A stretch of DNA of 64,000 nucleotides. Source: Acidiferrobacter sp. GTDB taxonomy: Bacteria > Pseudomonadota > Gammaproteobacteria > Acidiferrobacterales > Acidiferrobacteraceae. The stretch covers positions 8,039-72,038 of the forward strand of contig DATKTV010000037.1 in the NCBI GenBank assembly GCA_035530915.1, read 5' to 3'. Positions 30,816-59,345 of the stretch are shown here, piece after piece. The notes under the pieces were generated by a model. That model was not told where the DNA came from, made no database searches, and worked only from the letters and a program-made list of their open reading frames with translations. Position numbers and translations under genes: made by a program. Numbering within the stretch: position 1 is the stretch's first letter; every line of letters starts with the position of its first letter.

Positions 30816-30955
30816 TGTCATTGCGACCATAAGTCTGTCTGCGATTAACCCATAAGTCTTCGCAGAATTACACAAAACAATGCTAAACGGGCCACCGTTG
30901 CAGCGGCACTTACCCATAAGTCTTCGCAGAGCGCAAATTTAAACCATAAGTCTTC
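30816..30955 (+). repeat. transposon left end: terminal inverted repeat plus four direct transposase-binding-type repeats
   Basis: CCATAAG cores at 30827, 30850, 30914 and 30944, all in the same orientation. Contexts are GACCATAAGTCTGTC, ACCCATAAGTCTTCGCAGA (twice) and AAACCATAAGTCTTCACAA. Confidence 0.8.
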
Positions 30956-31543
30956 ACAAAATGCCTGCTCTATGGTGGGCGTAATGAGCCGTACTTGTTT
31001 GGGCAAGAAGGATGCAACAATACAAGTCTAGGGTCTCGGGAGGGGAAAACGATACGACTTCCTTGTAGTTTGGCCATGTTGTTCATTTGTGGCGCTAGCT
31101 TCATACGCGTGATCGCACCAGAGACTGGTCTGGGAAGAAGCCTTAGCAATCGCCCGAGATCCAGCACATCGAGAGTAGAGGTTCCAGGCTAGGCTCACCG
31201 AATCGTGCCGCGATGGCATCCAGCAAGTTGCGGATGGACTTGGCCTTCAGGTTGAACAGCCTACCCCTGACTATGGCTCAGGCAATGCTTCCGGCATCGG
31301 CTGTTGCGATTTCGTGATGGGTGGTAAAGACTTCCTTTAAGGCACGGGAGGAGTTTTGGTATCTGGCTCCCTCGGTTTTCGTGCTGCAGATGATGAACAG
31401 CGGTTCGTCAAACGGGTCCTTGGGGATTGTAGTGGTCCAAATCCCGATACGATTTCTTGGCTCCGGCCGCAATCTCCACCACATATTTCAGGGGTTTAGT
31501 CGAGAGCCGCACATATTTTCTGACCATGGGTCATGGAGCCGTG

Positions 31544-32776
31544 TTACAGCGGAAGGCCCGGTATGCGGTTGGGCCAAGACTTGCCAGGGTCGTAGAACAA
31601 CACCTCTATGCCCAGTTTTAGCAACGTATCAACCGCATACTTTTGAAGCTCGGGACTCTGTGTCACATGAAGCACCAGTCTGGCGTTCAAGTTGTCGTAG
31701 TCCTTACTGAGCTCGTTCAGGTAGCAGGCGAGCTGGAACGCCCCCTTCGATGATTGGGAAAGGATGTTATCGACGTTCGAGCTTTTGATTTCGAAGACGT
31801 TCAGCTTTTCCTTGGATCTGTATAACAAGTCGATAGAACTGCTTTCGTAAGGCTTGATGCCATTCGTGATTAAGTATTCTGAAATATCCTTCAGCATCTC
31901 TTGGTGGATTTTTTCCGCATGCCCTGTCTTCTTGAGCATCTCCTCCAGGTTCCTCGGTTTCGAGTCGGTCGACACAAACTCCCTGGCGCATATTTCTCGC
32001 GGCTCTATTTCTGAAAACTCGGTATCCACGCACGGCGCGTTGTAACTATAGCCAGGCTCTCTCCGCTCAGCCCCAAGCTTTTCTTTGGCAAATATGACCG
32101 ACACGGGGTCGAAAGCTTTCAGGTCATAGACGATACCGGGCGAAGGTCTTGTGCCCATGCTTTCCGTGAGTAGCGCACAGGCATAATTCGAAAAAGCGCC
32201 CAGCCTGTCACCCGTCCCGTTCGCCCATACCTGTTCCAGCGTAAGCTGCGACACCACCGCCCGTAAAGCACTTTGGGCCAGGCGGCGACCGTTGCTCGGC
32301 AGCAGCTGGAAATCGATCTTAGACAGGGAGCGTTTGTCGGGCGGCAGCAGCTTCGTCTGTATCGACCCTTTGACGAGCGCCGTGAGCGCATCGGATGATC
32401 CCTGCGACAGTTCGGATACTCCAAGCATAGAAGAGCGCGTGGACATCGTGGCGTATCTGGCCGCACCCGCGAAGTCGGACACCAGCTTGATTGAACCCGT
32501 CATCTCCGGCGATATCCAGTAGTCGCCGGAGTAGTAATCATCATCGATTATCCGCTCAACCGTTTTAATCTTGACGAGCAGGAGCAACCGGTCTTCGTGC
32601 CCACGCAACACGACCCAGAGCCTTCGGCCCGCCAAGGATTCAGGTTCTAAATCGACCACGTTTTTTGGGAGAATATAACTGCCGGAAACACCGGCGCTTC
32701 CAAAAGACGGGCCCTTATCGCCATCTAGGACCCAGACCAGATCAGGCATGGGCTCCGAGCTCCTGAAGTGCGTCAT
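31544..32776 (-). CDS. two-domain protein with C-terminal RecB-like PD-(D/E)xK nuclease motif set (last gene of methyltransferase operon)
   Basis: C-terminal SIDLLY-x7-VFEIKS-x~20-QLACY matches D...ExK...QxxxY of RecB/Cas4-type nucleases. The ~250-aa N-terminal region has no motif I recognise. Alternative start MPDLVW at 32749. Confidence 0.6.
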   Translation of the reverse strand: MTHFRSSEPMPDLVWVLDGDKGPSFGSAGVSGSYILPKNVVDLEPESLAGRRLWVVLRGHEDRLLLLVKIKTVERIIDDDYYSGDYWISPEMTGSIKLVSDFAGAARYATMSTRSSMLGVSELSQGSSDALTALVKGSIQTKLLPPDKRSLSKIDFQLLPSNGRRLAQSALRAVVSQLTLEQVWANGTGDRLGAFSNYACALLTESMGTRPSPGIVYDLKAFDPVSVIFAKEKLGAERREPGYSYNAPCVDTEFSEIEPREICAREFVSTDSKPRNLEEMLKKTGHAEKIHQEMLKDISEYLITNGIKPYESSSIDLLYRSKEKLNVFEIKSSNVDNILSQSSKGAFQLACYLNELSKDYDNLNARLVLHVTQSPELQKYAVDTLLKLGIEVLFYDPGKSWPNRIPGLPL

Positions 32777-34418
32777 CCAGCGATGTCGGCCAAGTTATGT
32801 GGTCGCCTAACAAATCGTGCTGCCGGACTTCTTTGCCCCTCAACCTCACCACCTCGGTTTCTTCTATCGTGTTCTTGCAAATCAGCAGGTAGTAGTTGAC
32901 CTCGTCCGCGACCTGCCCACGCCTGTGTATCCTGTCGAGCGACTGGAGATAATGTGCTGCCTGGTTAGAATAAGATATGTAGACCGCATCGTAGGCCGCG
33001 TGTAAGGTGATTCCAGCGCCTGCGGCGGCGGGGTTGCCCACGAACAGCATGGTTGACGGGTCCTCCTGGAAGGAGCGCACTGCGTCTCGCCTCGCTACGT
33101 TAGAAGTAACCGAGCCATCGACCCTAACGGGACGATACCGCGAATATCTCGCCATGATCTCGTCCAGGCTTTTCCTGTAGAAAGACCAGAGCACGACCTT
33201 GCGGCCCTGGGAGATCAGTTTATCTAGGAGATCGTCGAGCACGGTATATTTCACGGGAACTTCCGAAGCCGTTGGGTCTATCGAGCTGGGGCAGGAACAT
33301 ATCTGCAACAACGCGGCCCTCTTCTGGAAATAAGTCAGCAAACTCTTCTTGAACGACTCGTTATTGAGCCCCCGAAGCTCCAGCTCCAATGCTGATTGTG
33401 CCTTCTCGTACATTAGTGCCTGCTTGCCCGCGAGCTCCACACTTATCACGTGGAAGTTCTTTTCCGGAACATGCTGAAGGATATCCGGCTTCAACCTCCT
33501 GATGAAAACACCTTTCGTGTCTACCAACGTAGCGATTGTGTCCCAGTCTTCCGCAACATTGTTCGATTTTTTGAACCCTCCGAACGTGTAACCGAGATCC
33601 GCCAGATCGAACTGATTCACCAGGTCATGGGCGGAGTTGGGGGCGGGAGTCCCGCACAGCACGAAACACTTCCGGCACTTCGACCTGAGTCTATCCACGA
33701 TTTCCGAACGGTAGGACTCGCCGTTTTTAAGGTAGTAGGACTCGTCGACCACGAGAAGGTAGCGCTTGGTGAACGCGCTCGCCATCAGGTAGACCAGCAT
33801 GGGCTCAACACCTTCGTAGTTCGTGACCAGCACGTCGAACTTGCGTTGCGCAGTCTCATACTTCTGCCGCTGGTCGCCCTCAGCTATTTCGACCTGGCAC
33901 TCTGGGGCTAGAAACCTGGCTATGTCCTTCGGCCACTCGCTGACCATACTCTTCGGGCACACCACGATCATCGCATCTATCTCGCCCTTAGCCCTCAACT
34001 CGTCGAACGCGGCGAGGGTCATAACGGTTTTCCCGCTGCCCTGCTCGTCGAACAGACAGAGCCCGAGAAGGCCAAGCACGGTCATCGCTCCGACCGCCGA
34101 TGCCTGGGCGGGTTCGAGGACGTTGTTCCAGTTCCCAGACAGTGCGGGCTGCTCGCCGAGTTCTATTATCTCCAGCGCTCTGATTCGGGCCGCTTCGTGC
34201 TGCTTGAATCGTTCCAACGCGCTCCCCACATCGCCATCCGTTTCCGCATGATCTATCAGGTCTGCGACTATAGGGAGAGCAGACAACCGAAACCTAATGA
34301 AACCTTTTCCCGAGGTAAGCTGCGAGCCTACCCGTTGGGCAAGCTGGGCCTTAAGCTTTAAAAGTTCAAGTCCGGCGCACTCTATATATATCCCATCCTC
34401 CTCAACCCGGGCTTTCAT
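32742..34418 (-). CDS. minimal SNF2-family ATPase/translocase
   Basis: DEQGSGKT (motif I), LVVDESYYLKN (II), LCGTPAPNSAHDL (III), QSLDRIHRRGQ (VI). Confidence 0.85.
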   Translation of the reverse strand: MKARVEEDGIYIECAGLELLKLKAQLAQRVGSQLTSGKGFIRFRLSALPIVADLIDHAETDGDVGSALERFKQHEAARIRALEIIELGEQPALSGNWNNVLEPAQASAVGAMTVLGLLGLCLFDEQGSGKTVMTLAAFDELRAKGEIDAMIVVCPKSMVSEWPKDIARFLAPECQVEIAEGDQRQKYETAQRKFDVLVTNYEGVEPMLVYLMASAFTKRYLLVVDESYYLKNGESYRSEIVDRLRSKCRKCFVLCGTPAPNSAHDLVNQFDLADLGYTFGGFKKSNNVAEDWDTIATLVDTKGVFIRRLKPDILQHVPEKNFHVISVELAGKQALMYEKAQSALELELRGLNNESFKKSLLTYFQKRAALLQICSCPSSIDPTASEVPVKYTVLDDLLDKLISQGRKVVLWSFYRKSLDEIMARYSRYRPVRVDGSVTSNVARRDAVRSFQEDPSTMLFVGNPAAAGAGITLHAAYDAVYISYSNQAAHYLQSLDRIHRRGQVADEVNYYLLICKNTIEETEVVRLRGKEVRQHDLLGDHITWPTSLDDALQELGAHA

Positions 34419-34422
34419 CGGT

Positions 34423-35544
34423 TCACCCCGATGCCGCTTTGCTCAGTTTGATTACCAGTTCCAGCGCCTCTTGGAGATTTGTTCGGGATCTTTCCGGAAT
34501 CAGCTCGATATCCGAGGCGGTCATTCCTTTGATGAACTTAACGAACGTATCGATCCTGCCGATAGCTTCATCGCCGCTCCTCACGATTCTTGCGTTGTAG
34601 TCGAGAATCGCTTTCGCCGATTTCGCGGCGGCCGGATCTGGCTGTAATAGAGCCGCTTTGGCTTCTGGATGTTGCCATGCTTTATATGCGATCCTCACCT
34701 CGGGGAAGCTCGAAAACTTAGAGTCGTTGATCCATTTAAAAAACTGGATCTTGAAATCAATGTCCGTCTTTAACGGGTCGAAAAATGACTTTTGCGCCTC
34801 GTTGAAATACTGATAATTTTTTGCAGCAATAGTCTCGGCTTCCTGCTCTGGCAACCCCAAACCGCCACCAGACTCATCGTCCGGGTCTATATTTGCAGTC
34901 GCAAAAATAACGAACTCCTGGATTATTTCGTGGATCTTGAGCGCGTTCTTGATTTGCGATCTGTCCCAACTGAACTTTTGCGAAATCTGCTCCAGGCTTA
35001 AACCCTCCTCATGCGCACCGATAACCTGGACCGCCTTCACGTATGCAGGCCACTCGATTTTTAACGATGCCGAAAAGTTCTCTTCCACCAGGACATTCTG
35101 CTCGTCGGCATCCGTCGCGTCTTCAGAAAGAACGTGGACTTCGACCGTTTCCAGGTCTTGTCGGTTTGGGTCAGACACCGACATACTCGCCAGCGCGTAT
35201 TGAACAGCAAAAAACCTCCGGTTCCCATCGAGCAGCTTCCCCGTGTACGACAGGGCGAGAGGTTCGCGCAGGCCATTTTTGATGATGTCGTCCCGAAGCT
35301 GCTTGAGTTTTACCTCCGGATCGTTCTTCATCAGATCGAAAATCTCGTCCTGGGTTAGTTGCCTCCCGCCCACCTCGGATAAATATTTCTTTTTCTCCAA
35401 TTCGATTCTGGGATTGTCCACCCAGCCGATGATCGACGAAACTTTAACCTTTCCTTCCCAAACGTTGATCCTCCTGCCGTTATAAAGCCTCTGCTTGATT
35501 TGAGGCTGGGGCTTGTCCAACATAAACTTGGGATGAGTGGTCAT
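34423..35544 (-). CDS. ParB/Srx-fold N-terminal domain protein
   Basis: GLREPLALSYTGKLLDGNRRFFA resembles ParB box I/II, including the GxRR arginine patch. The ~230-aa helical C-terminal region is unassigned. Confidence 0.6.
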   Translation of the reverse strand: MTTHPKFMLDKPQPQIKQRLYNGRRINVWEGKVKVSSIIGWVDNPRIELEKKKYLSEVGGRQLTQDEIFDLMKNDPEVKLKQLRDDIIKNGLREPLALSYTGKLLDGNRRFFAVQYALASMSVSDPNRQDLETVEVHVLSEDATDADEQNVLVEENFSASLKIEWPAYVKAVQVIGAHEEGLSLEQISQKFSWDRSQIKNALKIHEIIQEFVIFATANIDPDDESGGGLGLPEQEAETIAAKNYQYFNEAQKSFFDPLKTDIDFKIQFFKWINDSKFSSFPEVRIAYKAWQHPEAKAALLQPDPAAAKSAKAILDYNARIVRSGDEAIGRIDTFVKFIKGMTASDIELIPERSRTNLQEALELVIKLSKAASG

Positions 35545-35564
35545 GGTTGTCTTAATCCTCTGGG

Positions 35565-36386
35565 CTAATCTGTCGTTTTCAACATCGATTCCAACTGATG
35601 AATGCGGTCTATCAGTTCAGATTTTTTCATCTGCGAGTATTGTTTCACTGGGGCGGGGGCCTGCTTATAAACATTCGCGAATGGCGCATGGTAGTCGACA
35701 AAAGGAGCATCAATGTCCCGAGCCATAACCTTTTCCTTCGCGATCCTTTGAATCCAAAAACCGGCCAAGTTTCTCGTGAACCGTTTTTTGATCTGTTCCT
35801 CAACAGCTGTAAAAATATCTGTGGCTCCATCATCTATGGCGCCGTCCCTACAAACGAACACAGCCAGATCCAACAATGGCGTCGAACCCTTTATCGTGGT
35901 TAGTATCGTCAAGAAATTCGCCATCCAACAATCATGAAAGCGGAGCCCCCACTGCTTCCCGGTAGCCGCGAGCCCCATTTTGAATAGTGGGTGCTTGGGA
36001 CGGTTCGGATAGTAAAATGGGGTAGCTTGGTTTGATGCTTTCTTCAGAGGCACCGTCAGGAAGTTCGACGATATCCTTTTCTCCGGGTGGGTTCCTGCCT
36101 CTTCGATTCTACCTAACTCGGTTACTTGCCTGACCATACCGTGGGAGTTTCCGACCAGAACAAGCTTAGTAAATTCCAGCTCCACTTGCTTGCGGTTATT
36201 TTTCCCTTCCAGACTGCCTGGGTTCAGATCCAGGCTGCTCACTCCGAAATGTTCGAACGTGGCATCGACCGACAAAAAATACATCAGCGCAGACGTTCGC
36301 TCCATATGCGTTTTCCCCGTGGTGTTTCGCGAGGAAAGCCTTTCGAACGACTTGCAAACCAACTCCTGACTGAAATATTTAGCCAT
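35565..36386 (-). CDS. hypothetical protein, no recognisable motif (operon member)
   Basis: A 273-aa ORF, 4 nt downstream of the methyltransferase stop and 20 nt upstream of the ParB-like gene. Codon usage matches its neighbours. Confidence 0.6.
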   Translation of the reverse strand: MAKYFSQELVCKSFERLSSRNTTGKTHMERTSALMYFLSVDATFEHFGVSSLDLNPGSLEGKNNRKQVELEFTKLVLVGNSHGMVRQVTELGRIEEAGTHPEKRISSNFLTVPLKKASNQATPFYYPNRPKHPLFKMGLAATGKQWGLRFHDCWMANFLTILTTIKGSTPLLDLAVFVCRDGAIDDGATDIFTAVEEQIKKRFTRNLAGFWIQRIAKEKVMARDIDAPFVDYHAPFANVYKQAPAPVKQYSQMKKSELIDRIHQLESMLKTTD

Positions 36387-36390
36387 CGCC

Positions 36391-37812
36391 TCATGCTCTT
36401 CTTTTGGTTTTTACTGACGGTTTCTCGTGCGAGAAGATCACGTCTCTGTCGCGGGCACGCAGCGGCTTGCCGGAGTCTACAAACTGCTCGAAGCTCATAT
36501 ATTCCGATTCACCCCTTAGGTCGGCTCCATCCAACACCGCCTTGATCTGCATAGCCATCTCGTAGGCCAGCCTAGGGGGCACCGCATTGCCGATCTGCTG
36601 GTATTTCGATTTTATGGTGCGTCCCGCGAAACCAAACCAATCGGGGAAGGTTTGAATTCTGGCGATTTCCCTCACCGAAAATATGCGCTTCTCGATGGGA
36701 TGCCAAACCCCGGCATTCTCGGGTTTAAATGCCGCGGTGATCGTGCCAGCGATTTCGTCCCGATGATATCTCCTGTAGAAGTTAGGCCATCGGTATCGTT
36801 CCATATTGTCACTTATTTTCTTGAGGCGATCGGGAAGCTTCTCGTAGGGGATGCTTTTCCACGACCCGCCTTCGGGAACCATGCTCCCAATCTGTATGGC
36901 CTGCGGGTTCAGCTGCATCAGCTCCTTCTGGTTCAACACCTTGCTGTTCAAATCCAGAATGGTGTGCTTGAGGCTCAAATCGTCCCTGTCGATAGGGTGC
37001 GGGAAAGAAAACACTCCGGCCGTATGAACCCTCTCCACCCCGACGATGAATACGCGCAGCCTTTTTTGCGGGACGTGGTGCCTGGACGCATCGATCAGGC
37101 CGAAGATCACGTTGTATCCCAACGCATCCAGCTGCTCGCATATTTCTTGAATCAGGAGCTTCTGTCCATCACCGAAGGAGAGCAACCCGCGCACGTTTTC
37201 GAACAATACACTTCTGGGCTTCAAGTCGCGGACGAAAGCCAAGGCGGTCTGGTATAGGGTCCCACTTGTGCTGTCTTCCACACCCTTCCTGGAGCCTGCG
37301 TTCGAGAAGGGCTGGCACGGAAATCCTGCGGTCAACACATCAGGGCGTTTGGTCAGTTTCGGAACACCGACCACCCTTACGTCCTGATCGGAGATTTCCC
37401 CGATATTCTGGCGATATGTCTCGCACGCATCAGGGTTGATGTCGTTCGCGAACACCGTCTCGAATCCTGCCTGATGGAAGCCAAGGTCGAAGCCACCACA
37501 ACCTGAAAACAGGCTCACGTGCGTTAAGTCGGCCTTTGCGGTGTTTTTTTCAAGTGGGGTGAAAATCTCCCACGGGCGAGCCATCTTCTGTTCGGCGCCG
37601 GATGTTTTGGCCATCGGTTTCAGCGGAGAAGGCCTCAAGTTTTGGACTGTTGCCGACTTTTTCTGCTGCTTAATGTTGCCACGAGTCTTTTTCCCGACCT
37701 CGACAATAGCCGACTTGGCATCCAAACGTTTTCTTAGCGCCCTCGTAGAGGTTTTGACGACTTTGGCTCGATGTTGAAGGCCATTCACCATTTTTTCTGT
37801 TTCAACCTTCAT
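36391..37812 (-). CDS. DNA (cytosine-5)-methyltransferase with basic N-terminal extension
   Basis: Motifs FSGCGG (I), GFPCQPFS (IV, catalytic Cys), ENV (VI), QKRLRVFIVG (VIII), TFPDWF (IX), GNAVPP (X). The first ~95 aa are Lys/Arg-rich with no motif; the start codon is uncertain (internal Mets exist). Confidence 0.9.
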   Translation of the reverse strand: MKVETEKMVNGLQHRAKVVKTSTRALRKRLDAKSAIVEVGKKTRGNIKQQKKSATVQNLRPSPLKPMAKTSGAEQKMARPWEIFTPLEKNTAKADLTHVSLFSGCGGFDLGFHQAGFETVFANDINPDACETYRQNIGEISDQDVRVVGVPKLTKRPDVLTAGFPCQPFSNAGSRKGVEDSTSGTLYQTALAFVRDLKPRSVLFENVRGLLSFGDGQKLLIQEICEQLDALGYNVIFGLIDASRHHVPQKRLRVFIVGVERVHTAGVFSFPHPIDRDDLSLKHTILDLNSKVLNQKELMQLNPQAIQIGSMVPEGGSWKSIPYEKLPDRLKKISDNMERYRWPNFYRRYHRDEIAGTITAAFKPENAGVWHPIEKRIFSVREIARIQTFPDWFGFAGRTIKSKYQQIGNAVPPRLAYEMAMQIKAVLDGADLRGESEYMSFEQFVDSGKPLRARDRDVIFSHEKPSVKTKRRA

Positions 37813-38182
37813 TTAGGGAAGGTCTGCATAACTCAATTCTCGGCTCGTTCGCACTATAGGCGGATTCAAACATGAGTCCAATTTTGATGGAAATTGGTTG
37901 TGTTGGCAAGGTGAGGCCTTGTCCGATATGAAATGGGTCTGAAGGGGGTTATCGATACGCTGTCATGCAACATGATACCCTGCTGGTGCGAACCGTGATT
38001 CTCGAATATCTTGCTATCAAGGCCTGCTGGGCCTGTGGGCATGTCGGGCGAACATCGTGACTGGGTTGATCCAACACTATGAGCCCCGCCGTCCCGCATG
38101 CGACAGCGGTAATAGGTAGCTCGGGTCGCACAAAATGGGTGCCGGCCCTTCTTCGTAGTACGGCCGCCCATAACGCGCCCGC

Positions 38183-38749
38183 TCAGATACGTGCCTGAAT
38201 AGGCGGGTGATTACGCCATTGCGTTTCTATGTTCGCCCGAAGAGCTGTATCCGTAGCAGCCGCGTAAAATATGATCCCAGCGGTCGTTTTGATGTCCTCG
38301 ATAAAATCTTCGGCGACGAAGCATGCGGCATCTGGCGCGTTAGGGCTAGCAAATGATGACAGGTGAGGCTGCCCTTCGGCCCGGTGCGCCAATACGATGG
38401 CCCTTGGGCGACCGCCATTGTCCGTCGCAGCGCCATCGGGAATAAGCGAAAAACTGTGAACGATTCCGCATCGCAGAATAACGTACATCTGGGTGGGCAG
38501 GTCCTGGGCTCCGCTTACATACGTGAAATTGCGATACTCCGCGCGTGTCTGAGCCATATATCGGTCCACGAATGCGATGTAGTGCCCGCGGCCCGCCTTT
38601 CCGCCTGTCACGAGTTTAACGAGATATTCGACCATAGCCGCAGCGCATACAAAAACCCAAGCGTTGCCCATCCCACACATCGCGAGCAATTCATCCGCCC
38701 TATCGTCAAAGTACCGCTTAGCTTCCGCAAGCTCCGTTCCAAGATCCAT
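38183..38749 (-). CDS. hypothetical protein (orphan cargo gene)
   Basis: Start set at MDLGTEL (ATG at 38749), preceded by GGAGAGGAG. 189 aa. Contains one R-x4-H string (RCGIVH), but nothing else I can assign. Confidence 0.55.
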   Translation of the reverse strand: MDLGTELAEAKRYFDDRADELLAMCGMGNAWVFVCAAAMVEYLVKLVTGGKAGRGHYIAFVDRYMAQTRAEYRNFTYVSGAQDLPTQMYVILRCGIVHSFSLIPDGAATDNGGRPRAIVLAHRAEGQPHLSSFASPNAPDAACFVAEDFIEDIKTTAGIIFYAAATDTALRANIETQWRNHPPIQARI

Positions 38750-39012
38750 TCTAATCTCCTCTCCCGGTTGGCCCGGGGTGCGTCCGCGCTTTACGGGGCC
38801 ACTCGGCATGGGCCCGGCGCCCGTACAAGCCCACCCAGCAGCGTTGTCCCGCTTCCCGCCTGACTGGGCGCGCCGGGCCCGTACCGAACAGTCCGCCGAG
38901 CAATAAACGTACCGCCGATCACAAGCGCTGCAAGGGTGGCAGCTTTAGATCAAAATCAGTGGCAGGATTGGGCCGGAATACGCACGCCGCGACCATTGGC
39001 GCCCACGATCGC

Positions 39013-39576: not shown

Positions 39577-39578
39577 TG

Positions 39579-39920: not shown

Positions 39921-39935
39921 GGTCCCCTTTTTCAT

Positions 39936-40008
39936 ACGTAAGACACAGTGATTGACATGTGCAACAAACGTATGCGACGATGTTGCACGTAAGAGACACC
40001 ACTGTCTC
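39936..40008. promoter_or_regulatory. candidate operator/promoter block in the divergent capH-like / Ubl intergenic region
   Basis: Direct repeats ACGTAAGACAC (39936..39946) and ACGTAAGAGACAC (39987..39999). Inverted repeat GTGCAACA (39959..39966) N14 TGTTGCAC (39981..39988). GACACAGTG (39942..39950) versus CACTGTCTC (40000..40008). A consensus TTGACA lies at 39952..39957. Confidence 0.45.
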
Positions 40009-40077
40009 ATAGAGGCCCCGGGGGGTCAAGATAGGCGAGCCGCCGGGCATTTCTTCCTTTTAAAGCCGAGGTTTACG

Positions 40078-40389: not shown

Positions 40390-40391
40390 GC

Positions 40392-40892
40392 ATGGCCGCG
40401 CTGGTGCCATTACAGGATGTCCACGGCGGCCGAGAGGCGTTCGCGCGCGATCTCGCGACGGTCTTAAAAGGTGCCAGCCTAACAGAGCGTGGGTGGGCGG
40501 CGCCTAACGACCTCACGCTGCTAGTGCCACTGTTCCCTGTAAACGCCGCAGGCAACTGCGATGCGTACCTGCTCCGACTTTTCTTTGATCACTACTCGAA
40601 TGGGCCACCCAGCGCGCAATTCGTCAACCCCTTGACCTTATCCTATGTTTTTCCCAACGACGTCATGTGGGTCCCGTGCATCGCGGGTCACCCAAGCATC
40701 GCCTTTCATACGAATTTCAATAACAGCCTTCAGCTTATTTGTTCATCCACGACGCTGGAGTTCTACAAGGTGAACCACGCGGTGGCCGAAGAGCACCTCT
40801 GGCGCACCGGGCAGATGACGTTCTTGAGCACTCTCGCCGCTATCCGGGCTGGCCTAGCGCCGCCTTACTACAAGGGCAGGTCGGCGAGATGA
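40392..40892 (+). CDS. bilB: E2-like ubiquitin-conjugating enzyme homologue
   Basis: 166 aa. NGPPSAQFVNP...WVPCIAGHP...LQLICSS resembles the UBC-fold region around the catalytic Cys. 2-nt gap from the Ubl gene and ATGA overlap with the JAB gene. Confidence 0.6.
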   Translation: MAALVPLQDVHGGREAFARDLATVLKGASLTERGWAAPNDLTLLVPLFPVNAAGNCDAYLLRLFFDHYSNGPPSAQFVNPLTLSYVFPNDVMWVPCIAGHPSIAFHTNFNNSLQLICSSTTLEFYKVNHAVAEEHLWRTGQMTFLSTLAAIRAGLAPPYYKGRSAR

Positions 40893-41428
40893 ACGACGAC
40901 AAAAGCCAACAGCGTCCTCAACCAACGACGCCTTACGTCGCGACTGGCCGCGTCACAAAAATCGACCCGCGCGTACTTACCATGACTCGCCGCACGCTCC
41001 GGGCTGCGGGACAGAAAGAGGCTGGGTGTCTGTGGTTGGGCGCAGTGGCGGCAAACGGCGAGGCGTCTGTCGAGGCCATTGTCGTCCCCAAACAAACGAA
41101 TCGAGCTAGGAACTTCTCTATTGCGGCGGGCGCGATGCGCGAAATCGCCACGCTGGCGCGCCCCCAAAAGTGGGTCCTAGTCGCGGCGGTCCATTCCCAT
41201 CCGGGTATTTCGGTGGAGCATTCGGAATACGATGACAAGATGGTGCCGAGCCGTCACGCCCTGTCGCTTGTGTTCGCCCACTACGGCGCGGAGCGGGGAG
41301 CATGGCCGAACGGGGTGGGCGTCCATGAGTTTGTTGATGACTATTGGCACCTACTGTCGCCAGAAGATGCCGCAAAGCGCGTGACCCTTGCGCATATCCC
41401 TAGACTTCAGCTGCTGGATTTACGATGA
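40889..41428 (+). CDS. bilC: JAB/JAMM (MPN+) metallopeptidase
   Basis: Start at MNDDKSQ (40889). EAGCLWLG Glu motif and a JAMM signature HSHPGISVEHSEYD (HxHx7Sx2D). Confidence 0.8.
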   Translation: MNDDKSQQRPQPTTPYVATGRVTKIDPRVLTMTRRTLRAAGQKEAGCLWLGAVAANGEASVEAIVVPKQTNRARNFSIAAGAMREIATLARPQKWVLVAAVHSHPGISVEHSEYDDKMVPSRHALSLVFAHYGAERGAWPNGVGVHEFVDDYWHLLSPEDAAKRVTLAHIPRLQLLDLR

Positions 41429-42990
41429 GCACGAATATCGATCTGCTAGGAGACCGGCACTTCCGAACCGACCCCCAAGGCGTTCTTCGGCCGAAACGCG
41501 ACGGGCGGTGCGGACGCGTTCTTTTGACTGTGGCCCCATTCCTTGCGGACACCCCGGCCGGGCAGCATCTGGCGTGGATGCTGACTAACCAACTAGCGCG
41601 CCAGTTCGGTGTGGTGACTAAAATTACGCTCCATATACCGGAAGCTGCACTGATCGAGAATACGGCGGCCTTTGGAGCCAAGACGTCTCTTCGCGACACC
41701 CTTGCCGAATGCGTCCGGCTCGTGGCGCGGGAGCATGTCGAGGTGCAGACAGGTCTCGGAAGCGCGGATCATTTTGAAGTTCATATCGCGGTGGGCGCCG
41801 CAAGAAATCTCGTCAGCGCCGAGCGCGCCTGGTGCCTCTATGCGGACGGGTGGCGCTGGTATGTCGGCAACGGCACCCATATCCCCACAAACCGACCGAC
41901 CAGCAACTTGAGTTTCGGACCCTACATGGCAGCGAGTTTCGCCGCCGGAGAGGCATTTAAGCACCTGCGGGGGATGCTGCCAAATAAAGGCGTCTTTATC
42001 ACCGAGTGCCTTGGGTCCGCCTGGACCATGAGCCTCGGGACCACATGGAATGATTTGATGGATGGTCCTGGGAACGAGGCCCTTCCTGCATTGCCGCACT
42101 TTTATTTTGCGGGCGCTGGCGCCGTGGCACAAGCCGCCGCCCTGACGTTGGGGAGCTCTCGGCTAAGAGGCTCTGCCACCGTGATTGACCACGACACGTT
42201 AGATCTTACGAACGGTAACCGCTATGTCCTCTCTCCGATGGATGACGATCAGTCACCAAAAGCGAACATTGTCAGCGCCTACCTGACGAAGCAAGGGCTC
42301 CTTGGCCGCCCTGCACCAGTTAAATGGAGCACATATGTCGGGGCGCAGGGCGGGATGACTGGGAGCGAATCCATACGGCGGCTTGAGCAGCGTTATCGCT
42401 TCCCCACCGTGCTGTCTTGCGTTGACAAAAATGGCCCCCGCCATGAAATCCAGTCCCTGCTTCCGGAAATAATCATTGGCGGCAGCACGGACGGCCTTGT
42501 TGCTAGGGTATCGACCTTCTATATGGCACATGACGCGGCTTGCCTGAAATGCTTCAACCCTATTGAGGACCGCAACGCCATTATTGAGAAAAAGCTCAGG
42601 CTATTAGTCACCATGACAGCTGACGAACGCGAGGCGTGGGTTGTCGAGCACAGTCTTCCAGTCGCTGATATTGCACGCCTTTTGGCGCCTAGCGTGTGCG
42701 GCCAGCTCAGCGAGAGCGATCTTCAGCGATTCGCCGAGGGGCCGCCGGAAATGTCAGTAGGTTTTGTTTCAGTGACCGCGGGCGTTTTGCTTTCGGCACA
42801 GCTAGTCCGCCTTGTCCAAAGAGGCGTTGATGATGCTACCCAAAACGGACATACCGTCATAACAACCTTTGCTCAGGCGAGCATGCGACACCTCAGGAGC
42901 GGCCCCGATGCTCAGTGCAACTGCGCGCCGGAGCTGCGCAGTCGATGGCACCGCTTGTGGGGAGCTCCTGAGCCATCGGCGGGATACTGA
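41425..42990 (+). CDS. bilD: E1-like ThiF/MoeB-family adenylating enzyme (two-domain size)
   Basis: 521 aa. FAGAGAVAQ nucleotide-binding loop near residue 230, VIDHDTLDLTNGNRY, CVDKNGPRHE, CLKCFNP. ATGA overlap with the JAB gene. Confidence 0.8.
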   Translation: MSTNIDLLGDRHFRTDPQGVLRPKRDGRCGRVLLTVAPFLADTPAGQHLAWMLTNQLARQFGVVTKITLHIPEAALIENTAAFGAKTSLRDTLAECVRLVAREHVEVQTGLGSADHFEVHIAVGAARNLVSAERAWCLYADGWRWYVGNGTHIPTNRPTSNLSFGPYMAASFAAGEAFKHLRGMLPNKGVFITECLGSAWTMSLGTTWNDLMDGPGNEALPALPHFYFAGAGAVAQAAALTLGSSRLRGSATVIDHDTLDLTNGNRYVLSPMDDDQSPKANIVSAYLTKQGLLGRPAPVKWSTYVGAQGGMTGSESIRRLEQRYRFPTVLSCVDKNGPRHEIQSLLPEIIIGGSTDGLVARVSTFYMAHDAACLKCFNPIEDRNAIIEKKLRLLVTMTADEREAWVVEHSLPVADIARLLAPSVCGQLSESDLQRFAEGPPEMSVGFVSVTAGVLLSAQLVRLVQRGVDDATQNGHTVITTFAQASMRHLRSGPDAQCNCAPELRSRWHRLWGAPEPSAGY

Positions 42991-43080
42991 ACAATCGCGC
43001 CAAGGGCAGCGTGGCAAATAGTGAGATCAGACAGGGTAACCGTGAGAAGGAGGTCGCCCTTTAAGTGCAGCGAGGCCAGC

Positions 43081-45750
43081 ATGCGAACGACAGCCGAAAT
43101 AGATATGCTTTGTGATCGCTTGAATATCCCGCCCAATGGGCGTGCCCTGATTGAACGTATCCGGAATTCACCACCCTCTCGCACGGTCCAGGGGGGACGC
43201 GGCAACGTCTGCGCGCGCTATCCGAGCCGCAAGATGGGGCACACCATTCAAGCCGAGAGCCATACGCTCGAACTGCCCGGCATTTACGATATGGAATATG
43301 ACAGCGATGTTCTTGAGTACTACGATCAGCCGCCCGTGATCAAGTTGCGCTACGTGACCCTCTCGGGTCGCAAGACTGGAGCGTTTCATACCCCGGACTT
43401 CCTCGTTATCAGCAACGCCCGGGTGGGGTGGGTTGAGTGGAAGCGCGAAGGCGAGCTAGCGATGCTGGCAGCCAAGCAGCCGGGTAGGTACCGTCAGGAT
43501 GCCGACGGTCAGTGGCGCTGCCCGCCTGGGGAGGAGTACGCCGCCTCCTTCGGCCTCCAGTATGCCCTCCGGACCGAACGATCCCTCAACCAGACGATCT
43601 ACCAAAACCTGGTCTTCTTGGAGGATTACTTTGCCAGAGAAGCACCCGAGCCGGACTCGACGCTTATTGAAGCGGTCCGGGCTAGGCTGCGCGCCCGGCC
43701 TGGCATGACGCTCGCCGACTTGCGACGAGAGGAGGGCGGGCTCACGCCCGACAAGATCTTTAGCCTTATCGCCCGCGGAACGGTCTACTGCGACCTAGGG
43801 GCCGTGCACTTGGGCGAGGCGAACCACGTGCGGCTTTTCCTCGACGAAACCACAGGCGCGGCCTTTCGGAGCGCTGCTGATAGCCGACGAGACGATGCTC
43901 AACTCCCGTTCACGCCTATCGTGCAGCGCCCCGGCCAGACGTTCCGCTGGGACGGTAATCTTTGGACCATTCTCAATGTCGGCGCGAGCAAGATATTTGT
44001 CGGAAGTACCGCCGGAGATCACATCGCCCTGGAGGAGGCGGTCTTCGCGAAGCTCATTACCGAAGGCGCGATTTGCGGGGTGGTTGGCGCCCCTTCGGCC
44101 TCGCACCCGATCAGCGACAAGATCTTAACCAAAGCGCGCCCCGAGGACCTCGCGCTCGCCAATAGCCGGTACGCATTGATCCGCCCCTTGCTCGAGGGCG
44201 GACAGCCCGCTCAAAGCGATGTGACGAGGCGCACACAGTACGCCTACCTGAAGCAGTGGCGCGCTGCGGAAGAAAGCCTGGGTTGTGGCTACCTTGGACT
44301 CTTGCCCGGCCATGCACGGAAGGGCAACCGCACGGCGCGACTGTCGGAGGAGTCCCTGAAATATCTTGACGAGACTATCGATAGTTACTACGAAACCATC
44401 CGCGCCACCTCGGTCTGGGTCGGCTATGGACGTTACCTCAACGTCTGTGAGGAACACGGCGTCATCGCAGCTAGTTATATGACGTTCACAAAGCATGTGG
44501 CGCGCCGACCGCTCGATAAACAGATTCGTCGACGCGAGGGACGGAAACGCGCCTACCCGCACGAGGAATTCTACTGGCGACTGGATAGCCATGTCCCTCG
44601 ACACGGCTCAAGGCCATTTGAAATAGCCCATATCGATCACACGGAAATTCAGCTGGAGATCGCTTCCTCCTGGACGCACAAGTCGTTAGGACGCGCGTGG
44701 CTGACTCTGATGGTCGATGCCTTCACTCGCATGGTGTTGGCCTTTGCTTTGTCCTTTGAGCCCCCAAGCTACCGGTCTTGCATGAGCGTCCTTCGCGACT
44801 GCGTGCGACGGCACGGCCGACTGCCCAAGACCATCGTAGTCGACCGTGGCGCAGAATTCGGCGGCGTGTATTTTCAAACATTGCTCGCCCGTTTTGAGAT
44901 TATTCAAAAAAGTCGGCCGCCCTCCATGCCGCGGTTTGGAAGCGTCGTCGAACGGCTGTTCGGCGCGACCCAATCCCAACTCATCGATAACCTCCTCGGC
45001 AACACCAAGATCACGCGCCACGTTCGCCAAATGGCGCCCGAAGTAGACCCAAAACGCCACGCCCTGTGGACACTGGAGAAATTTAACGCCCTTTTTGAGG
45101 CGTGGCTTACGGAGTTTTATGCGGTGACCCCTCATCCGGCGTTGGGTCAATCCCCCAAGGATGCCCTAGAACAGGGTCTGGCGGAAACGGGCTTACGCGA
45201 CTTTACGCGGATTGCCTATGACGACAATTTTCGCCTCTTGACGAGTCCCACGACACCCCGTGGCGTGGCACGCGTGCATCCGGCGCGCGGCATTAAGATC
45301 AATTACCTCTACTACTGGTCAACGGCCTTTCGCGACGCGCGTTTTGCTCGCGGGAAGGTGAATGTCCCCGTTCGTTACGATGCCTACGACGCCGGAGTCG
45401 CCTACGCATTGGTCGGTTCATGTTGGGTCACCTGTCGCTCGGAGCGCTATACCGAATTTCAAGGACGTACAGAGCGGGAAATCCAAATGGCTTCTGCAGA
45501 GCTTCGGCAGCAAAACACTGATCACGGTCGCCAGCGTACGGTAACGGCGCGGAAGCTGGGGGCATTCCTCATCTCAGCCGAGGTCGGAGAGCGATTGGCC
45601 TTGGAGCGAGAACGGGAATCCGAAACGCGGCACGTGCGGGAGCATTACGAGACGCCATTAAAGGCAGTGTCGACCGGAACTACGTCCAGCAAACCCGATG
45701 CTTCGCCAGCGGTGCGCAAGAAAAAACCGAAGCTACTGGAGACGTTTTGA
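43081..45750 (+). CDS. fused TnsA-like endonuclease / TnsB-like DDE transposase
   Basis: N-terminal AESHTLE...TPDFLV...VEWK (E, D, ExK, as in TnsA-type endonucleases). Then an rve-type DDE core: IAHIDHT, IVVDRGAEFGG, VVERLFG. Start uncertain: the listed ORF begins at a GTG at 43021 and the first ATG is at 43081. Confidence 0.8.
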   Translation: MRTTAEIDMLCDRLNIPPNGRALIERIRNSPPSRTVQGGRGNVCARYPSRKMGHTIQAESHTLELPGIYDMEYDSDVLEYYDQPPVIKLRYVTLSGRKTGAFHTPDFLVISNARVGWVEWKREGELAMLAAKQPGRYRQDADGQWRCPPGEEYAASFGLQYALRTERSLNQTIYQNLVFLEDYFAREAPEPDSTLIEAVRARLRARPGMTLADLRREEGGLTPDKIFSLIARGTVYCDLGAVHLGEANHVRLFLDETTGAAFRSAADSRRDDAQLPFTPIVQRPGQTFRWDGNLWTILNVGASKIFVGSTAGDHIALEEAVFAKLITEGAICGVVGAPSASHPISDKILTKARPEDLALANSRYALIRPLLEGGQPAQSDVTRRTQYAYLKQWRAAEESLGCGYLGLLPGHARKGNRTARLSEESLKYLDETIDSYYETIRATSVWVGYGRYLNVCEEHGVIAASYMTFTKHVARRPLDKQIRRREGRKRAYPHEEFYWRLDSHVPRHGSRPFEIAHIDHTEIQLEIASSWTHKSLGRAWLTLMVDAFTRMVLAFALSFEPPSYRSCMSVLRDCVRRHGRLPKTIVVDRGAEFGGVYFQTLLARFEIIQKSRPPSMPRFGSVVERLFGATQSQLIDNLLGNTKITRHVRQMAPEVDPKRHALWTLEKFNALFEAWLTEFYAVTPHPALGQSPKDALEQGLAETGLRDFTRIAYDDNFRLLTSPTTPRGVARVHPARGIKINYLYYWSTAFRDARFARGKVNVPVRYDAYDAGVAYALVGSCWVTCRSERYTEFQGRTEREIQMASAELRQQNTDHGRQRTVTARKLGAFLISAEVGERLALERERESETRHVREHYETPLKAVSTGTTSSKPDASPAVRKKKPKLLETF

Positions 45751-46907
45751 TGAGCCAAAAACCGCGCAAGGTCGACCACGAAGGCGATAGGTCGCTCATC
45801 GCCAGAGTGGGAGCCTTCCAGCGAATCACCGTCAAACACCGCAAACTCGAGGAGGCCCTTGAGAGTCTTTTGGCATACCTCTTCAACGAAGCTGAGGAGG
45901 GGATTATTTGCATCATCGGGCCCACCGGGGTCGGGAAGACCACCCTGCGTAAGCTCTGTATCACTGCTGTGCTAGCGCACGAGATCTCGGCGATGGACGA
46001 GGACCGCGGCTACATTCCGATCATGGAGGTCGAGGCCCGTGCGCCAGAGCGGGGCAACTTCGACTGGGCCACCTTCTACCGAGATAGTCTGGTCGCCTTA
46101 CAGGAACCCTTGGTAGACCGAAAGATCCTGACCAAAGAGGATAGCGCAAAGGTGAGGGCGGAGGGCAATGGTGCGCCTGGATTCCGTAGCCTCCTACAGT
46201 ATCGCATTGCTCTCGACAATGCCCTAAAGTTTCGGCACGTTAAGTATTTTTTGATTGACGAAGCGCAGACGCTTCTCAAGGTATCATCCGCCCGTTTGGC
46301 TGGCGACCAAATGGACACCATCAAGTCGCGGGCTTCGCTCACCGGCGTCCAGCACGCATTGATTGGCACCTATGAGCTGTTGAATACGGGAGACCTTAGC
46401 GCCCAGTTAAGTCGTCGGCGCCGCAACATTCACCTCCCTCGTTACGATTGCGACAACGCGGCCGACTTGGAAGAATTTATCAGCGTCATTCATACCTTCC
46501 AGTCACGCCTTCCGCTACCATGTAGCCGCGACCTTGTCGAGTCCGCCGACTTCCTTTATGCGAAAACGCTGGGCTGCGTCGGCATCTTGAAGACCTGGCT
46601 GAATGGGGTGGTCAGCACGGCCGCACAGCTGGGAGCTACCAAAATCACCATAAAAGATCTTGAGAGAAAAGCTTTGCCCAATCGAGATTTGATGACCATG
46701 CTGGCTGAAATCCGAGAAGGCGAGGACCAGTTTGCCGGACCCTCTGACACCACGCTGATGGCGGAATTGGGCCTCAAGAAGAGTCCGCACAGCAACGAGA
46801 ACGGCGCTGACGCGACGCAGGTAACAGACGCAGCAAAGACGCCCAGGCGTCGCCCTGGGCAGCGGCGGCCAACCCGAGACCCTATCGGAAGGAGCGCAAT
46901 TGCCTAA
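45747..46907 (+). CDS. TnsC/TniB-like AAA+ ATPase transposition regulator
   Basis: Walker A IIGPTGVGKTTL and Walker B FLIDEAQ. ATGA overlap with the transposase gene. Confidence 0.8.
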   Translation: MMSQKPRKVDHEGDRSLIARVGAFQRITVKHRKLEEALESLLAYLFNEAEEGIICIIGPTGVGKTTLRKLCITAVLAHEISAMDEDRGYIPIMEVEARAPERGNFDWATFYRDSLVALQEPLVDRKILTKEDSAKVRAEGNGAPGFRSLLQYRIALDNALKFRHVKYFLIDEAQTLLKVSSARLAGDQMDTIKSRASLTGVQHALIGTYELLNTGDLSAQLSRRRRNIHLPRYDCDNAADLEEFISVIHTFQSRLPLPCSRDLVESADFLYAKTLGCVGILKTWLNGVVSTAAQLGATKITIKDLERKALPNRDLMTMLAEIREGEDQFAGPSDTTLMAELGLKKSPHSNENGADATQVTDAAKTPRRRPGQRRPTRDPIGRSAIA

Positions 46908-48303
46908 TCGGCTGATTGAAATCATCAATGAAACAACCGGCGAATCTACGCAGCCGCCACCGCGCACGCCGTTTTACAGCCTTCCCCCGATAGGGGTTGG
47001 GACATGGGCCGTGGAAAGCACAACAGGATACATTGCTCGACTCGCCAAGAGTCACGGAATAATTGTTAGGGATCTAATTGCGGCGGCTTCGGGGGGAAAG
47101 CGTAGGCAAAATGGTGAATGGATTTTATTTTCCCAAAAACATGGCAGCGCGCTCCTAAACGGGGTTGGTCGGACTGCAAATGAGTGGGGGACGAGATTGA
47201 ATGCTCTTACCGGGCAGCCAATTATTCACAGAACAAGCCTTGGCCACTTGGAACATATATTTCGCAACGGCAAGGTTTTGAGGTATGACAGAGCATGGTG
47301 TTCCCAGTGTCTGGACGAGATGCGCCAACAAGGGCGCGTGTACGAGCGACTTATTTGGTCATTACGCCACGCGACGGTGTGCCCCAAGCATGGTGCATAC
47401 TTATCCGCCATGTGCCCGCATTGTGGTAATAAGGGAATGCGGCTTCTTAGTAATACACAGGTTCCGGGCTATTGCGTTTCCTGTAGCAACTGGCTTGGGG
47501 AGACCAAAAAGGCGAAAGGTGCCGAGCCGAAACGTTGGGGCTCGTGGATATCGTTACAAATGGGGCATTTAGTCGCAGCCGCATCGTCAGACCAGCGCGC
47601 CTGCACCGCAGCCAATGTGGTCGAAAACCTTCACGTTCTCGTTCGGATTATCTGCGAGGGACAACATATCATGATGAGGTTTGCGAAAGCGATCGACGCC
47701 CCTAAATCTACATGCTCCACATGGCTTAGTGGGAGAACACTCCCCACGCTGGACTATTGGTTACGAATAGCATGGGCATCGGGCTTGGATCTCGATCGGC
47801 TGCTCTTTTGTTCCCTGGCGGAAACGGACGAGTCTTTTCATTACGGGGAGCCGAGACACGACAAACCCTGGGAGCAACGTCCGACACGGCCCAATCGGGA
47901 CTGGGCATTGGCAGAGCGACGCCTTACGGAGATCTGCGCCTCTGGTAGGTTCGCCGAACAAAGTATGACACGAATCGCGGCCGATCTCGGAGTGGGCCGA
48001 GAAACGCTGAAGGCTCATTTCCCTTTGCTTTATGGGGAAATTTACGCACGAAGCACAGGTGAGCGCTCGGCTCAGGAATCGCAGCAAAAGGAGATGCGGA
48101 AAAAGCAGGTTCAGGATGCGGTAGTGGCGCTCCGTAATCGCGGACATGCACCTACTCGCCGGCAGGTGGCACAGGAACTTGGGGTAGCAGAAGTGAGTTT
48201 TCGTAGACTTGAATTTCAGGACGCTTGGCGGTCATGTGTAGGCACGGCCACACCTGAAACCCTGCCGGAGATCGACATGATGGGTCAGCGAAAATCTGAA
48301 TAA
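46900..48303 (+). CDS. tniQ: TniQ/TnsD-family target-selection protein
   Basis: N-terminal TniQ-type region (LPPIGVGTWAVESTTGYIARLAKSHG). Zinc-ribbon CSQCLDE...CPKHG...CPHCG...CVSC. 8-nt overlap with the upstream ATPase gene. Confidence 0.8.
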   Translation: MPNRLIEIINETTGESTQPPPRTPFYSLPPIGVGTWAVESTTGYIARLAKSHGIIVRDLIAAASGGKRRQNGEWILFSQKHGSALLNGVGRTANEWGTRLNALTGQPIIHRTSLGHLEHIFRNGKVLRYDRAWCSQCLDEMRQQGRVYERLIWSLRHATVCPKHGAYLSAMCPHCGNKGMRLLSNTQVPGYCVSCSNWLGETKKAKGAEPKRWGSWISLQMGHLVAAASSDQRACTAANVVENLHVLVRIICEGQHIMMRFAKAIDAPKSTCSTWLSGRTLPTLDYWLRIAWASGLDLDRLLFCSLAETDESFHYGEPRHDKPWEQRPTRPNRDWALAERRLTEICASGRFAEQSMTRIAADLGVGRETLKAHFPLLYGEIYARSTGERSAQESQQKEMRKKQVQDAVVALRNRGHAPTRRQVAQELGVAEVSFRRLEFQDAWRSCVGTATPETLPEIDMMGQRKSE

Positions 48304-48723
48304 TGTGCCACCCTTGATTATCCAATGCCTATCGGGTTGACGGTCAACGATTCCACGCCAGGGGATTTCTGGCCTAAAATGGAGCGCAGATTCCCTTCTG
48401 GGGCAGCAAGTTGACCACAGATGGTCCGCGCGCACGGCTTGGGCGTTAACCGGATAGGCGGGGAATGCAACCATGCTGCCGAGGCGGTACTCGGCTTCGG
48501 CCAGATATGTGGGTTTTCTGAATTCCGCCCCGAGATAGGCCAGAACAAACTTATTTGGTGCTTGTAACGCGGATGCGAAAAGGGGGCGCGACAGTTGAAA
48601 ATTTGCCCCAGGGCATAGTGACGAGGCTCTCCGAGATTTGAAGCCGCGCCGCCACCAATCGCTTAGCGTAGCGCCGCTTGACCACAAACCAGCGAGAGTC
48701 GCTGTGCGCTTCGGGAAGCTTTT

Positions 48724-48796
48724 AAACCATAAGTCTTCAGTAGGCCACTTTAAACCATAAGCCTTCATTTGCTGACGACTTATGGTTTAAATGACA
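48724..48796 (+). repeat. transposon right end: terminal inverted repeat plus two oppositely oriented internal sites
   Basis: AAACCATAAGTCTTC (48724..48738) and AAACCATAAGCCTTC (48752..48766) read in the same direction as the left-end sites. The terminal site GACTTATGGTTTAAATGACA (48777..48796) is inverted. AAACCATAAG (48752..48761) and CTTATGGTTT (48779..48788) form a perfect 10-bp inverted repeat with a 17-nt spacer. Confidence 0.8.
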
Positions 48797-48801: not shown

Positions 48802-48825
48802 AGGGAAAGCTGTTGAGGAGCTTAT

Positions 48826-59343: not shown

Positions 59344-59345
59344 CT

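Follow-up and report, generated by a model that had tools for sequence, protein, structure and literature searches.

How a block of some 18 kb comes to lie a fixed, short distance from an intact tRNA gene, and what kind of element it is, is the question raised by a locus of Acidiferrobacter sp. (contig DATKTV010000037.1 of assembly GCA_035530915.1). The locus was analysed within a window of 64,000 nt, to which all coordinates refer unless a locus label (L0xx or L1xx) stands before them. Based on its termini, its genes and the recurrence of related elements beside tRNA genes, the segment at 30816–48796 is very probably an apparently intact Tn7-family transposon, which belongs to the tRNA-targeting clade with fused TnsA and TnsB, occupies a tRNA-Phe site selected by its TniQ protein and carries defence cargo.

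Termini, transposase sites and transposition genes

The element spans 17,981 bp. Its far terminus begins at 30816 with TGTCATTGCGACCATAAGTC, which carries the TGT tip, while its tRNA-side terminus, read as the reverse complement of 48777–48796, is TGTCATTTAAACCATAAGTC, which matches TGTCATTGCGACCATAAGTC at 17 of 20 positions and provides the ACA tip. Both termini are directly flanked by the pentamer CGCAC, annotated as a target-site duplication (30811–30815 on the far side and 48797–48801 on the tRNA side). Beyond the tRNA-side copy, a 24-bp spacer which is not conserved among relatives (48802–48825) leads to an intact tRNA-Phe(GAA) gene, located by ARAGORN on the minus strand (48826–48901). 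The distance from the terminus to the 3′ end of this gene is exactly 29 bp (48797–48825). The tRNA sequence, the putative determinant of the attachment site, is identical in the window, in L002–L005 and in L083.

Transposase-binding sites were sought over the window with the motif AACCATAAGTCTTC, allowing up to three mismatches and using 100 shuffles as control. Twelve matches were found against 2.5 expected, a count reached by none of the shuffles, and eight of them lie at element ends (four at the far end, three at the tRNA-side end and one in an old end remnant described below). The target-distal end (30816–30962, plus strand) holds four direct copies, all on the plus strand (starting at 30825, 30848, 30912 and 30942 and reaching to 30955), over about 147 bp. 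In the target-proximal end (48716–48796, minus strand), the three copies are located within 48725–48787, at 48725 and 48753 on the plus strand and at 48774, the terminal site, on the minus strand. Because the two inner sites (48721–48739 and 48749–48767) share the strand of the far-end sites, their orientation is opposite to that of the terminal site, and they form a palindromic pair with it. The target-proximal end thus has sites in both orientations, and the same three-site layout recurs in L083, L086 and L099. Published work on this clade names the ends with reference to the transposase genes, so that the tRNA-side end, located downstream of them, is the left end and the target-distal end the right end; to call the tRNA-side end "right" reflects window coordinates only.

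The inverted site pair beside the tRNA (48749–48791) would also fold into a strong hairpin on the strand of the tRNA. The same hairpin occurs at L083 18532–18606 (z-score −7.9), L002 9493–9540 and L086 15798–15838, and is followed by a U-rich run in L002 and L086. Such a structure could possibly end read-through transcription from the tRNA gene.

Three plus-strand genes oriented towards the tRNA encode the transposition machinery. The first (43081–45750) codes for a fused TnsA-TnsB transposase of 889 amino acids (aa), which aligns over residues 10–854 with the 898-aa chain of PDB entry 9bw1 (E = 1.6e-236) and to which over 500 proteins of about 890 aa are homologous. Its TnsA domain (Pfam Tn7_TnsA-like_N, residues 94–186) retains D106, E119 and K121, and its TnsB part (Pfam rve, E = 2.8e-10) contains D519, D588 and E624, assigned by alignment, within the motifs IDHTE, VVDRGAEF and VERLFG. 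The second gene (45750–46907) encodes a 385-aa TnsC AAA+ regulator (Pfam AAA_22 and TniB) with Walker A (GPTGVGKT) and Walker B (IDEAQ) motifs. The third (46900–48303, TTG start) encodes a 467-aa target selector of the TniQ family and TnsD type (Pfam TniQ, E = 1.8e-16), with a weak Pfam helix-turn-helix (HTH) match at residues 261–299. A profile built from this TniQ and four relatives matched the solved 462-aa TnsD (PDB 8v32/9bw1) over positions 17–437 (E = 3.4e-67), and the zinc-ribbon cysteines as well as the C-terminal PTRR motif are invariant among the five relatives. Both PDB entries are taken here, by inference, to come from the PmcCAST work cited below as PMC12585508.

A full HMMER scan with TniQ returned 3,291 representatives at a threshold of E ≤ 0.001. 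Of these, 266 remain at E ≤ 1e-30, mostly proteins of 440–470 aa matched over their full length at 25–32% identity. The nearest clusters are sparse, with one representative at 40% identity and six proteins in a word-indexed search, and the TniQ of the window therefore belongs to a large family but to a thinly sampled branch of it. Scans of every open reading frame (ORF) of the element with Pfam, PADLOC and other family models found no cas domain and only one TniQ; no CRISPR repeat array was seen in the element, no repeat finder having been run over its interior.

These results bear out the anatomy proposed by the first-pass annotation, namely an element of about 18 kb with inverted TGT/ACA termini, CGCAC on both flanks, a gap of 29 bp between its terminus and tRNA-Phe and a tnsA/B-tnsC-tniQ operon, in which tnsA and tnsB prove to be fused into one ORF. 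The four directly repeated sites that it describes at one end are present, and so are the three at the other, tRNA-side end, which do not all share one orientation.

An additional ORF of 178 aa runs antisense at 48232–48768 (minus strand), where it overlaps the 3′ end of tniQ and the inner end sites. It was called as a gene in L001, has no family match, is absent from L083 and L084 and may not be a real gene. In the unrelated element of L086, a 172-aa ORF is found at the equivalent position.

Characterised tRNA-targeting elements and a possible route to the site

Elements with the same architecture have been characterised in cyanobacteria. Hsieh and Peters (PMC9881144) state that most Tn7-like elements with fused TnsAB reside at tRNA attachment sites, and that TnsD-dependent insertion 29 ± 1 bp after the tRNA gene has been shown for this clade, with the left end facing the target and the target-proximal end containing sites in both orientations. 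Similarly, Faure et al. (PMC10293859) describe homing of CyCAST 30–33 nt after tRNA-Leu, a reaction requiring TnsAB, TnsC and TnsD. McCAST and CyCAST (type I-D) and the non-CAST cyanobacterial TnsAB-fusion elements (PMC9881144; PMC10293859) are members of the clade to which the element of the window belongs and use tRNA attachment sites; they share with this element the short distance after the tRNA (29 ± 1 bp or 30–33 nt), a 5-bp duplication and an end downstream of the tns genes which faces the target and bears sites in both orientations. They differ from it in that this group targets tRNA-Leu and many of its members possess a second TniQ, whereas the window has tRNA-Phe and one TniQ; McCAST also ends in TAC/GTA instead of TGT/ACA.

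Structures of TnsC-TnsD-att and TnsABCD complexes are available for PmcCAST, a type I-B2 element from the Peltigera membranacea cyanobiont 210A (PMC12585508). Like the element of the window, PmcCAST relies for homing on a fused TnsAB, TnsC and a TnsD of about 460 aa, and inserts at a fixed short distance after a tRNA gene. In contrast to PmcCAST, neither Cascade genes nor a CRISPR array nor a second, small TniQ were seen in the window element, which leaves it with the protein-guided pathway only. The target (tRNA-Phe versus tRNA-Val), the host (the gammaproteobacterium Acidiferrobacter versus a cyanobacterium) and the cargo are different as well. Tn7 itself (TnsABC+D, attTn7 after glmS) follows the same logic, in which a conserved gene is recognised by a TniQ-domain protein, the signal passes through TnsC and a heteromeric transposase of TnsA and TnsB performs cut-and-paste transposition, with insertion outside the gene, in a single orientation and with a 5-bp duplication. 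Tn7 nevertheless differs by its separate TnsA and TnsB, its protein-coding target, its end upstream of tnsA facing glmS, its sites sharing one orientation within each end and its second selector, TnsE.

Collectively, the fused TnsAB, the tRNA site, the distance of about 29 bp and the end with sites in both orientations identify the element as a member of a characterised clade rather than a new kind of element. A conserved motif located 40–50 bp from the left end, inside the 3′ region of the tRNA, has been described (PMC11837452), and positions 40–50 from the terminus in the window correspond to the T-arm of tRNA-Phe. A literature search combining Tn7-like elements and tRNA-Phe, which covered the main text of the key papers and not their figures or supplements, returned no report of tRNA-Phe as a target.

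By analogy with these systems, a mechanism can be proposed. The 467-aa TniQ would bind the 3′ part of the tRNA-Phe gene and recruit TnsC, which would assemble adjacent to it and position TnsAB. The transposase would then make cuts through the two strands at either terminus and join the element 25–29 bp downstream of the tRNA, with the tniQ-side end facing the tRNA, the 5 bp CGCAC being duplicated and the tRNA gene left intact.

Reuse of tRNA sites and the history of the locus

The closest TnsAB (P0007, 91% identity) is encoded at locus L083, in another metagenome-assembled genome (MAG) of Acidiferrobacter. The corresponding TnsC and BilD proteins are 83% and 88% identical, whereas the host radical-SAM protein of the flank shows 64% identity. 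The two elements are thus far more alike than their host genomes, which indicates a horizontal relation. The terminus of the L083 element lies 29 bp from a tRNA-Phe gene of identical sequence, while its spacer and the 5 bp at its junction (GGGGA...) are unrelated to those of the window; the only conserved DNA beside both elements is the tRNA gene. The L083 locus therefore appears to represent independent use of the same tRNA-Phe site, following recent horizontal spread of near-identical machinery. Its contents are partly different, with a large AAA_27 ATPase accompanied by a metallophosphatase as other cargo, and with flavodoxin-like, pirin and LysR genes in the interval that separates tniQ from the end. 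The two TniQ proteins are only 45% identical, which, next to 91% for TnsAB and 83% for TnsC, suggests exchange of the selector as a module or its very fast divergence.

More distant relatives are found at other tRNA genes. In L086/L087 (Nevskiales), an element with a TnsAB of 48% identity, the same gene order and the palindromic site pair ends 31 bp from tRNA-Glu, and in L099 a 44% identical element with the palindromic pair ends about 25 bp from tRNA-His, both distances being counted from presumed termini. In both cases tnsAB-tnsC-tniQ points at the tRNA and the TniQ is correspondingly different. By contrast with these loci, the element of L100 has no tRNA within 8 kb, and a metagenome scan with the TniQ alignment yielded seven distant relatives only (about 27–43% identity), none with a tRNA in reach. 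Around tRNA-Phe itself, the related MAGs L003–L006 show neither the end motif nor tns genes, and left flanks are not syntenic between genera.

The site also seems to have been used before. A degenerate copy of the tRNA-side end (30765–30815, with a motif match at 30790 on the minus strand) adjoins the far terminus. When this 51-bp segment is aligned to 48749–48801, which comprises the palindromic pair, the terminus and CGCAC, 40 of 53 columns agree and there is a gap of 2 bp. The segment is likely the trace of an earlier, related element at the same position, whose body would have been lost before the present element inserted between the remnant and the tRNA. In a second genome, L002, whose radical-SAM protein is 74% identical to that of the window, a solo remnant of the end, 48 bp in length, is found at a distance of 31 bp from tRNA-Phe, with no tns genes within 9.5 kb. 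Solo remnants of about 50 bp are thus present at the same distance from tRNA-Phe in two genomes (30765–30815 in the window and 9493–9543 in L002); both consist of the palindromic site pair and the terminus only, and each is truncated at the inner site's outer edge. Several independent assemblies also break in or beside tRNA-Phe or the end repeats (the ends of L001, at about window position 48855, and of L089, at window position 30877, as well as the starts of L003, L004 and L005), which hints at variable or repeated DNA at the locus in related populations.

The remnant has to be considered when interpreting the CGCAC repeat, since the remnant itself ends with the left CGCAC and the 5-bp repeat alone is consequently no independent proof of a fresh duplication. 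The first-pass annotation had anticipated that the repeat might be explained purely by a duplicated old end, with the transposon interpretation then falling. The left copy does belong to the remnant, but this shared origin does not weaken the assignment as a transposon, for which the left CGCAC would be both old flank and new duplication. A reading in which the element is a fixed relic, no longer mobile, and CGCAC is simply part of an end-plus-flank duplicated from 48749–48801 to 30765–30815 is considered unlikely. It draws on the contiguity of the left CGCAC with the old end copy, and on the finding of the element at the same junction in every contig recovered from the population, with no empty site. 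Against it, all three tns genes are full length with intact motif residues, the ends are well preserved and the near-identical machinery of L083 speaks for recent horizontal spread. In addition, with an identity of only 75% and a gap of 2 bp, the 51-bp copy is old or derived from a different relative, not the product of a local duplication in recent times. The arrangement seen, an old end with 5 bp beside the new far end, is precisely what is expected of a second insertion into a site already occupied.

Two further explanations concern how the position was chosen. A tRNA-associated island integrated by a tyrosine or serine recombinase, with the Tn7-like genes as passengers, might be evoked because integrase-borne islands classically integrate at tRNA-Phe and because the GC content of the region (55.6%) is lower than that of the host flanks (about 62%). 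Family scans of every ORF of the element found no integrase or other recombinase domain, no direct repeat of the tRNA 3′ end is present, and the segment is bounded instead by inverted repeats with TGT/ACA tips, by arrays of transposase sites and by a duplication of 5 bp that lies outside the tRNA gene. An integrase-type island, lacking both a recombinase and a tRNA-derived repeat, was thus rejected as scarcely credible. It is also very improbable, though slightly less so, that the position is set otherwise than by TniQ reading the tRNA, for instance by homing to an old end remnant or by a host factor. The end remnants at the same spot in two genomes and the low identity of two TniQ proteins serving one site would fit such an account. 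Target immunity opposes it, as Tn7-family end sequences inhibit insertion in their vicinity instead of attracting it. The relatives at tRNA-Glu and tRNA-His have, as noted, different TniQ proteins, and both tRNA-Phe elements retain the TniQ HTH regions and C-terminal motif. Furthermore, homologous TnsD proteins have been shown to direct insertion after tRNA genes (PMC9881144 and PMC10293859).

The assignment as an apparently intact, TniQ-targeted transposon has its own weak points. The present mobility of the element is a prediction, and the left CGCAC has the double identity described above. The available sequence range of L083 stops before the far end and thus covers neither the boundaries of that element nor its duplication. 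With TniQ at 45% identity between the two tRNA-Phe elements (46900–48303 versus L084 10138–11496), their shared specificity is deduced from position, not from sequence. Finally, an empty tRNA-Phe site was sought in this population and not found; four contigs from three metagenome samples have a far-end junction identical to that of the window. With the left-flank methyltransferase as query, three contigs were obtained (of five on record), all of them identical to the window and running into the element, and exact-sequence look-ups of the right-flank radical-SAM protein and of P0001 gave no match. Of the two comparisons suggested by the first-pass annotation, the search for an empty tRNA-Phe site with a single CGCAC in related genomes was thus unsuccessful for this species, while the search for the same element at tRNA-Phe elsewhere led to the related element of L083. 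Its central proposal, a Tn7-like element using tRNA-Phe as attachment site through TniQ, is supported by the machinery, by L083 and by the literature, with binding of TniQ to the tRNA gene as its predicted step.

Cargo, genomic surroundings and significance

Tn7-like elements are surveyed carriers of defence cargo (Benler et al., 2021; PMC8649781), and two cargo modules can be distinguished here. The first is a Bil-like operon, bilA-bilB-bilC-bilD (40078–42990, plus strand), which encodes a putative ubiquitin-like protein of 103 aa, a putative E2 of 166 aa, a JAB deubiquitinase of 179 aa and an E1 of 521 aa. PADLOC identified BilC (E = 1.1e-9) for the JAB protein and BilD (E = 6.7e-15) for the E1, with Pfam matches to Prok-JAB, ThiF and BilD_N. 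The 103-aa and 166-aa proteins have no match among the family models scanned, PADLOC included, and are putative BilA and BilB by size and gene order only. The gene set matches that described for Bil systems (10.1101/2023.09.04.556158; PMC10557695), and the module is probably a Bil system, an assignment well supported by its JAB and E1 proteins.

Upstream, on the minus strand, lie the genes of an M78 (ImmA/IrrE-type) metallopeptidase resembling CapP (39013–39576; Pfam Peptidase_M78, E = 8.8e-15; best PADLOC match capP, E = 1.1e-7) and of an XRE-type HTH repressor resembling CapH (39579–39920; Pfam HTH_31 and HTH_3; gene call from L001), the latter divergent from bilA. CapH/CapP pairs are reported to de-repress immune operons upon DNA damage (10.1101/2022.04.27.489752). 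The genes from bilA to tniQ (40078–48303) are all on one strand with gaps of at most 90 bp, and no terminator-like site was found between bilD and tnsAB. It is tentatively proposed that the CapH/CapP-like pair controls a single bilABCD-tnsAB-tnsC-tniQ unit, in which DNA damage or phage attack would switch on both defence and transposition; expression of the transposase may accordingly be damage-inducible. An HTH/M78 pair is also found in L085 (5899–7112), directly divergent from a tnsAB whose product is 67% identical, in the absence of bil genes. The possibility that it is an inherited counterpart of the pair in the window was rejected because the two pairs are not homologous, and their common position is consequently an analogy, not an inheritance.

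The second module is a cassette of five genes on the minus strand (31544–37812). It comprises a C-5 cytosine DNA methyltransferase of 473 aa (36391–37812; Pfam DNA_methylase, E = 7.5e-71; PADLOC MTase_II, E = 5.4e-94), a 273-aa protein (35565–36386), a 373-aa protein (34423–35544), an SNF2-family helicase of 558 aa (32742–34418; Pfam SNF2-rel_dom, E = 1.7e-28, and Helicase_C) and, as last gene, a 401-aa protein (31544–32749) with a predicted C-terminal PD-(D/E)xK nuclease fold. In PADLOC, the helicase matches only the helicase regions of ZorD, DpdE and DrmD. The AlphaFold model of the 401-aa protein (pLDDT 88) has McrC, Cdn1, XisH and PaqCI as best fold matches, with probabilities of 0.96–0.99 and weak E-values; D307, E320 and K322 are invariant in 42 homologues, and a Cas4 match stays below threshold. 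The 373-aa protein has no match in Pfam, NCBIfam, PADLOC or PDB and only weak matches to uncharacterised families in PHROGs, while its single-sequence AlphaFold model is unusable (pLDDT 40). The 273-aa protein likewise has no match in Pfam, NCBIfam, PADLOC or PDB, and none of the three proteins of 273, 373 and 401 aa corresponds to a family in Pfam, NCBIfam or PADLOC (2023 release).

All five genes recur on an unrelated contig (L102 4049–10200) with unchanged order and comparable sizes, at 45–70% identity, the 273-aa protein being the 45% case and the 373-aa protein, the most conserved member, reaching 70%. There they form an island of low GC content (37% versus about 49%) among housekeeping genes. 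As a candidate module, the cassette plausibly and even probably acts as a restriction-modification-like defence, and it is conceivable, at the same tentative level as the regulatory proposal above, that it represents an undescribed defence system. The view that the element carries at least two defence modules is reasonable in this light, the first being a recognisable Bil system and the second a candidate. Two small ORFs of 101 aa and about 188–208 aa (37866–38809, minus strand), the larger of which is a called gene in L001, have no family matches.

The element is inserted between two chromosomal regions. To its left, from 18 to 30.6 kb, is a lipopolysaccharide (LPS)-core cluster with genes for Kdo transferase (waaA), heptosyltransferases, glycosyltransferases, an O-antigen ligase and a methyltransferase. 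This LPS-core/O-antigen-ligase cluster (18035–30577) directly abuts the element and has a GC content of 58.8%, below the rest of the host DNA. An older tandem element was considered for the low-GC region at 20–30.8 kb and rejected, as the region is a chromosomal LPS-core cluster devoid of transposase sites. To the right are a radical-SAM gene, mutY, asmA, tRNA-Gly, thiG, a trmB-like gene, gyrB, recF, dnaN and dnaA. The genes gyrB, recF, dnaN and dnaA are located at 55831–62036 on the minus strand, with a low-GC stretch near 60–61 kb. Judging from these dnaA-region genes, just some 12 kb separate the attachment site from the probable origin of chromosomal replication.

The element leaves the understanding of Tn7-family targeting unchanged. 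Its additions are modest and consist of a proteobacterial host, a tRNA-Phe target, two very different TniQ proteins at one site, evidence for repeated use of that site and the cargo. The cyanobacterial tRNA-targeting TnsAB clade is extended to acidophilic Gammaproteobacteria, and tRNA-Phe is added to the known tRNA attachment sites, alongside tRNA-Glu and tRNA-His in relatives. The element would also be a compact natural carrier, both of a Bil system and of a conserved, uncharacterised methylase-helicase-nuclease cassette. With near-identical transposases and TniQ proteins of 45% identity, the elements of the window and L083 form a natural pair for mapping the TnsD residues which set tRNA specificity.

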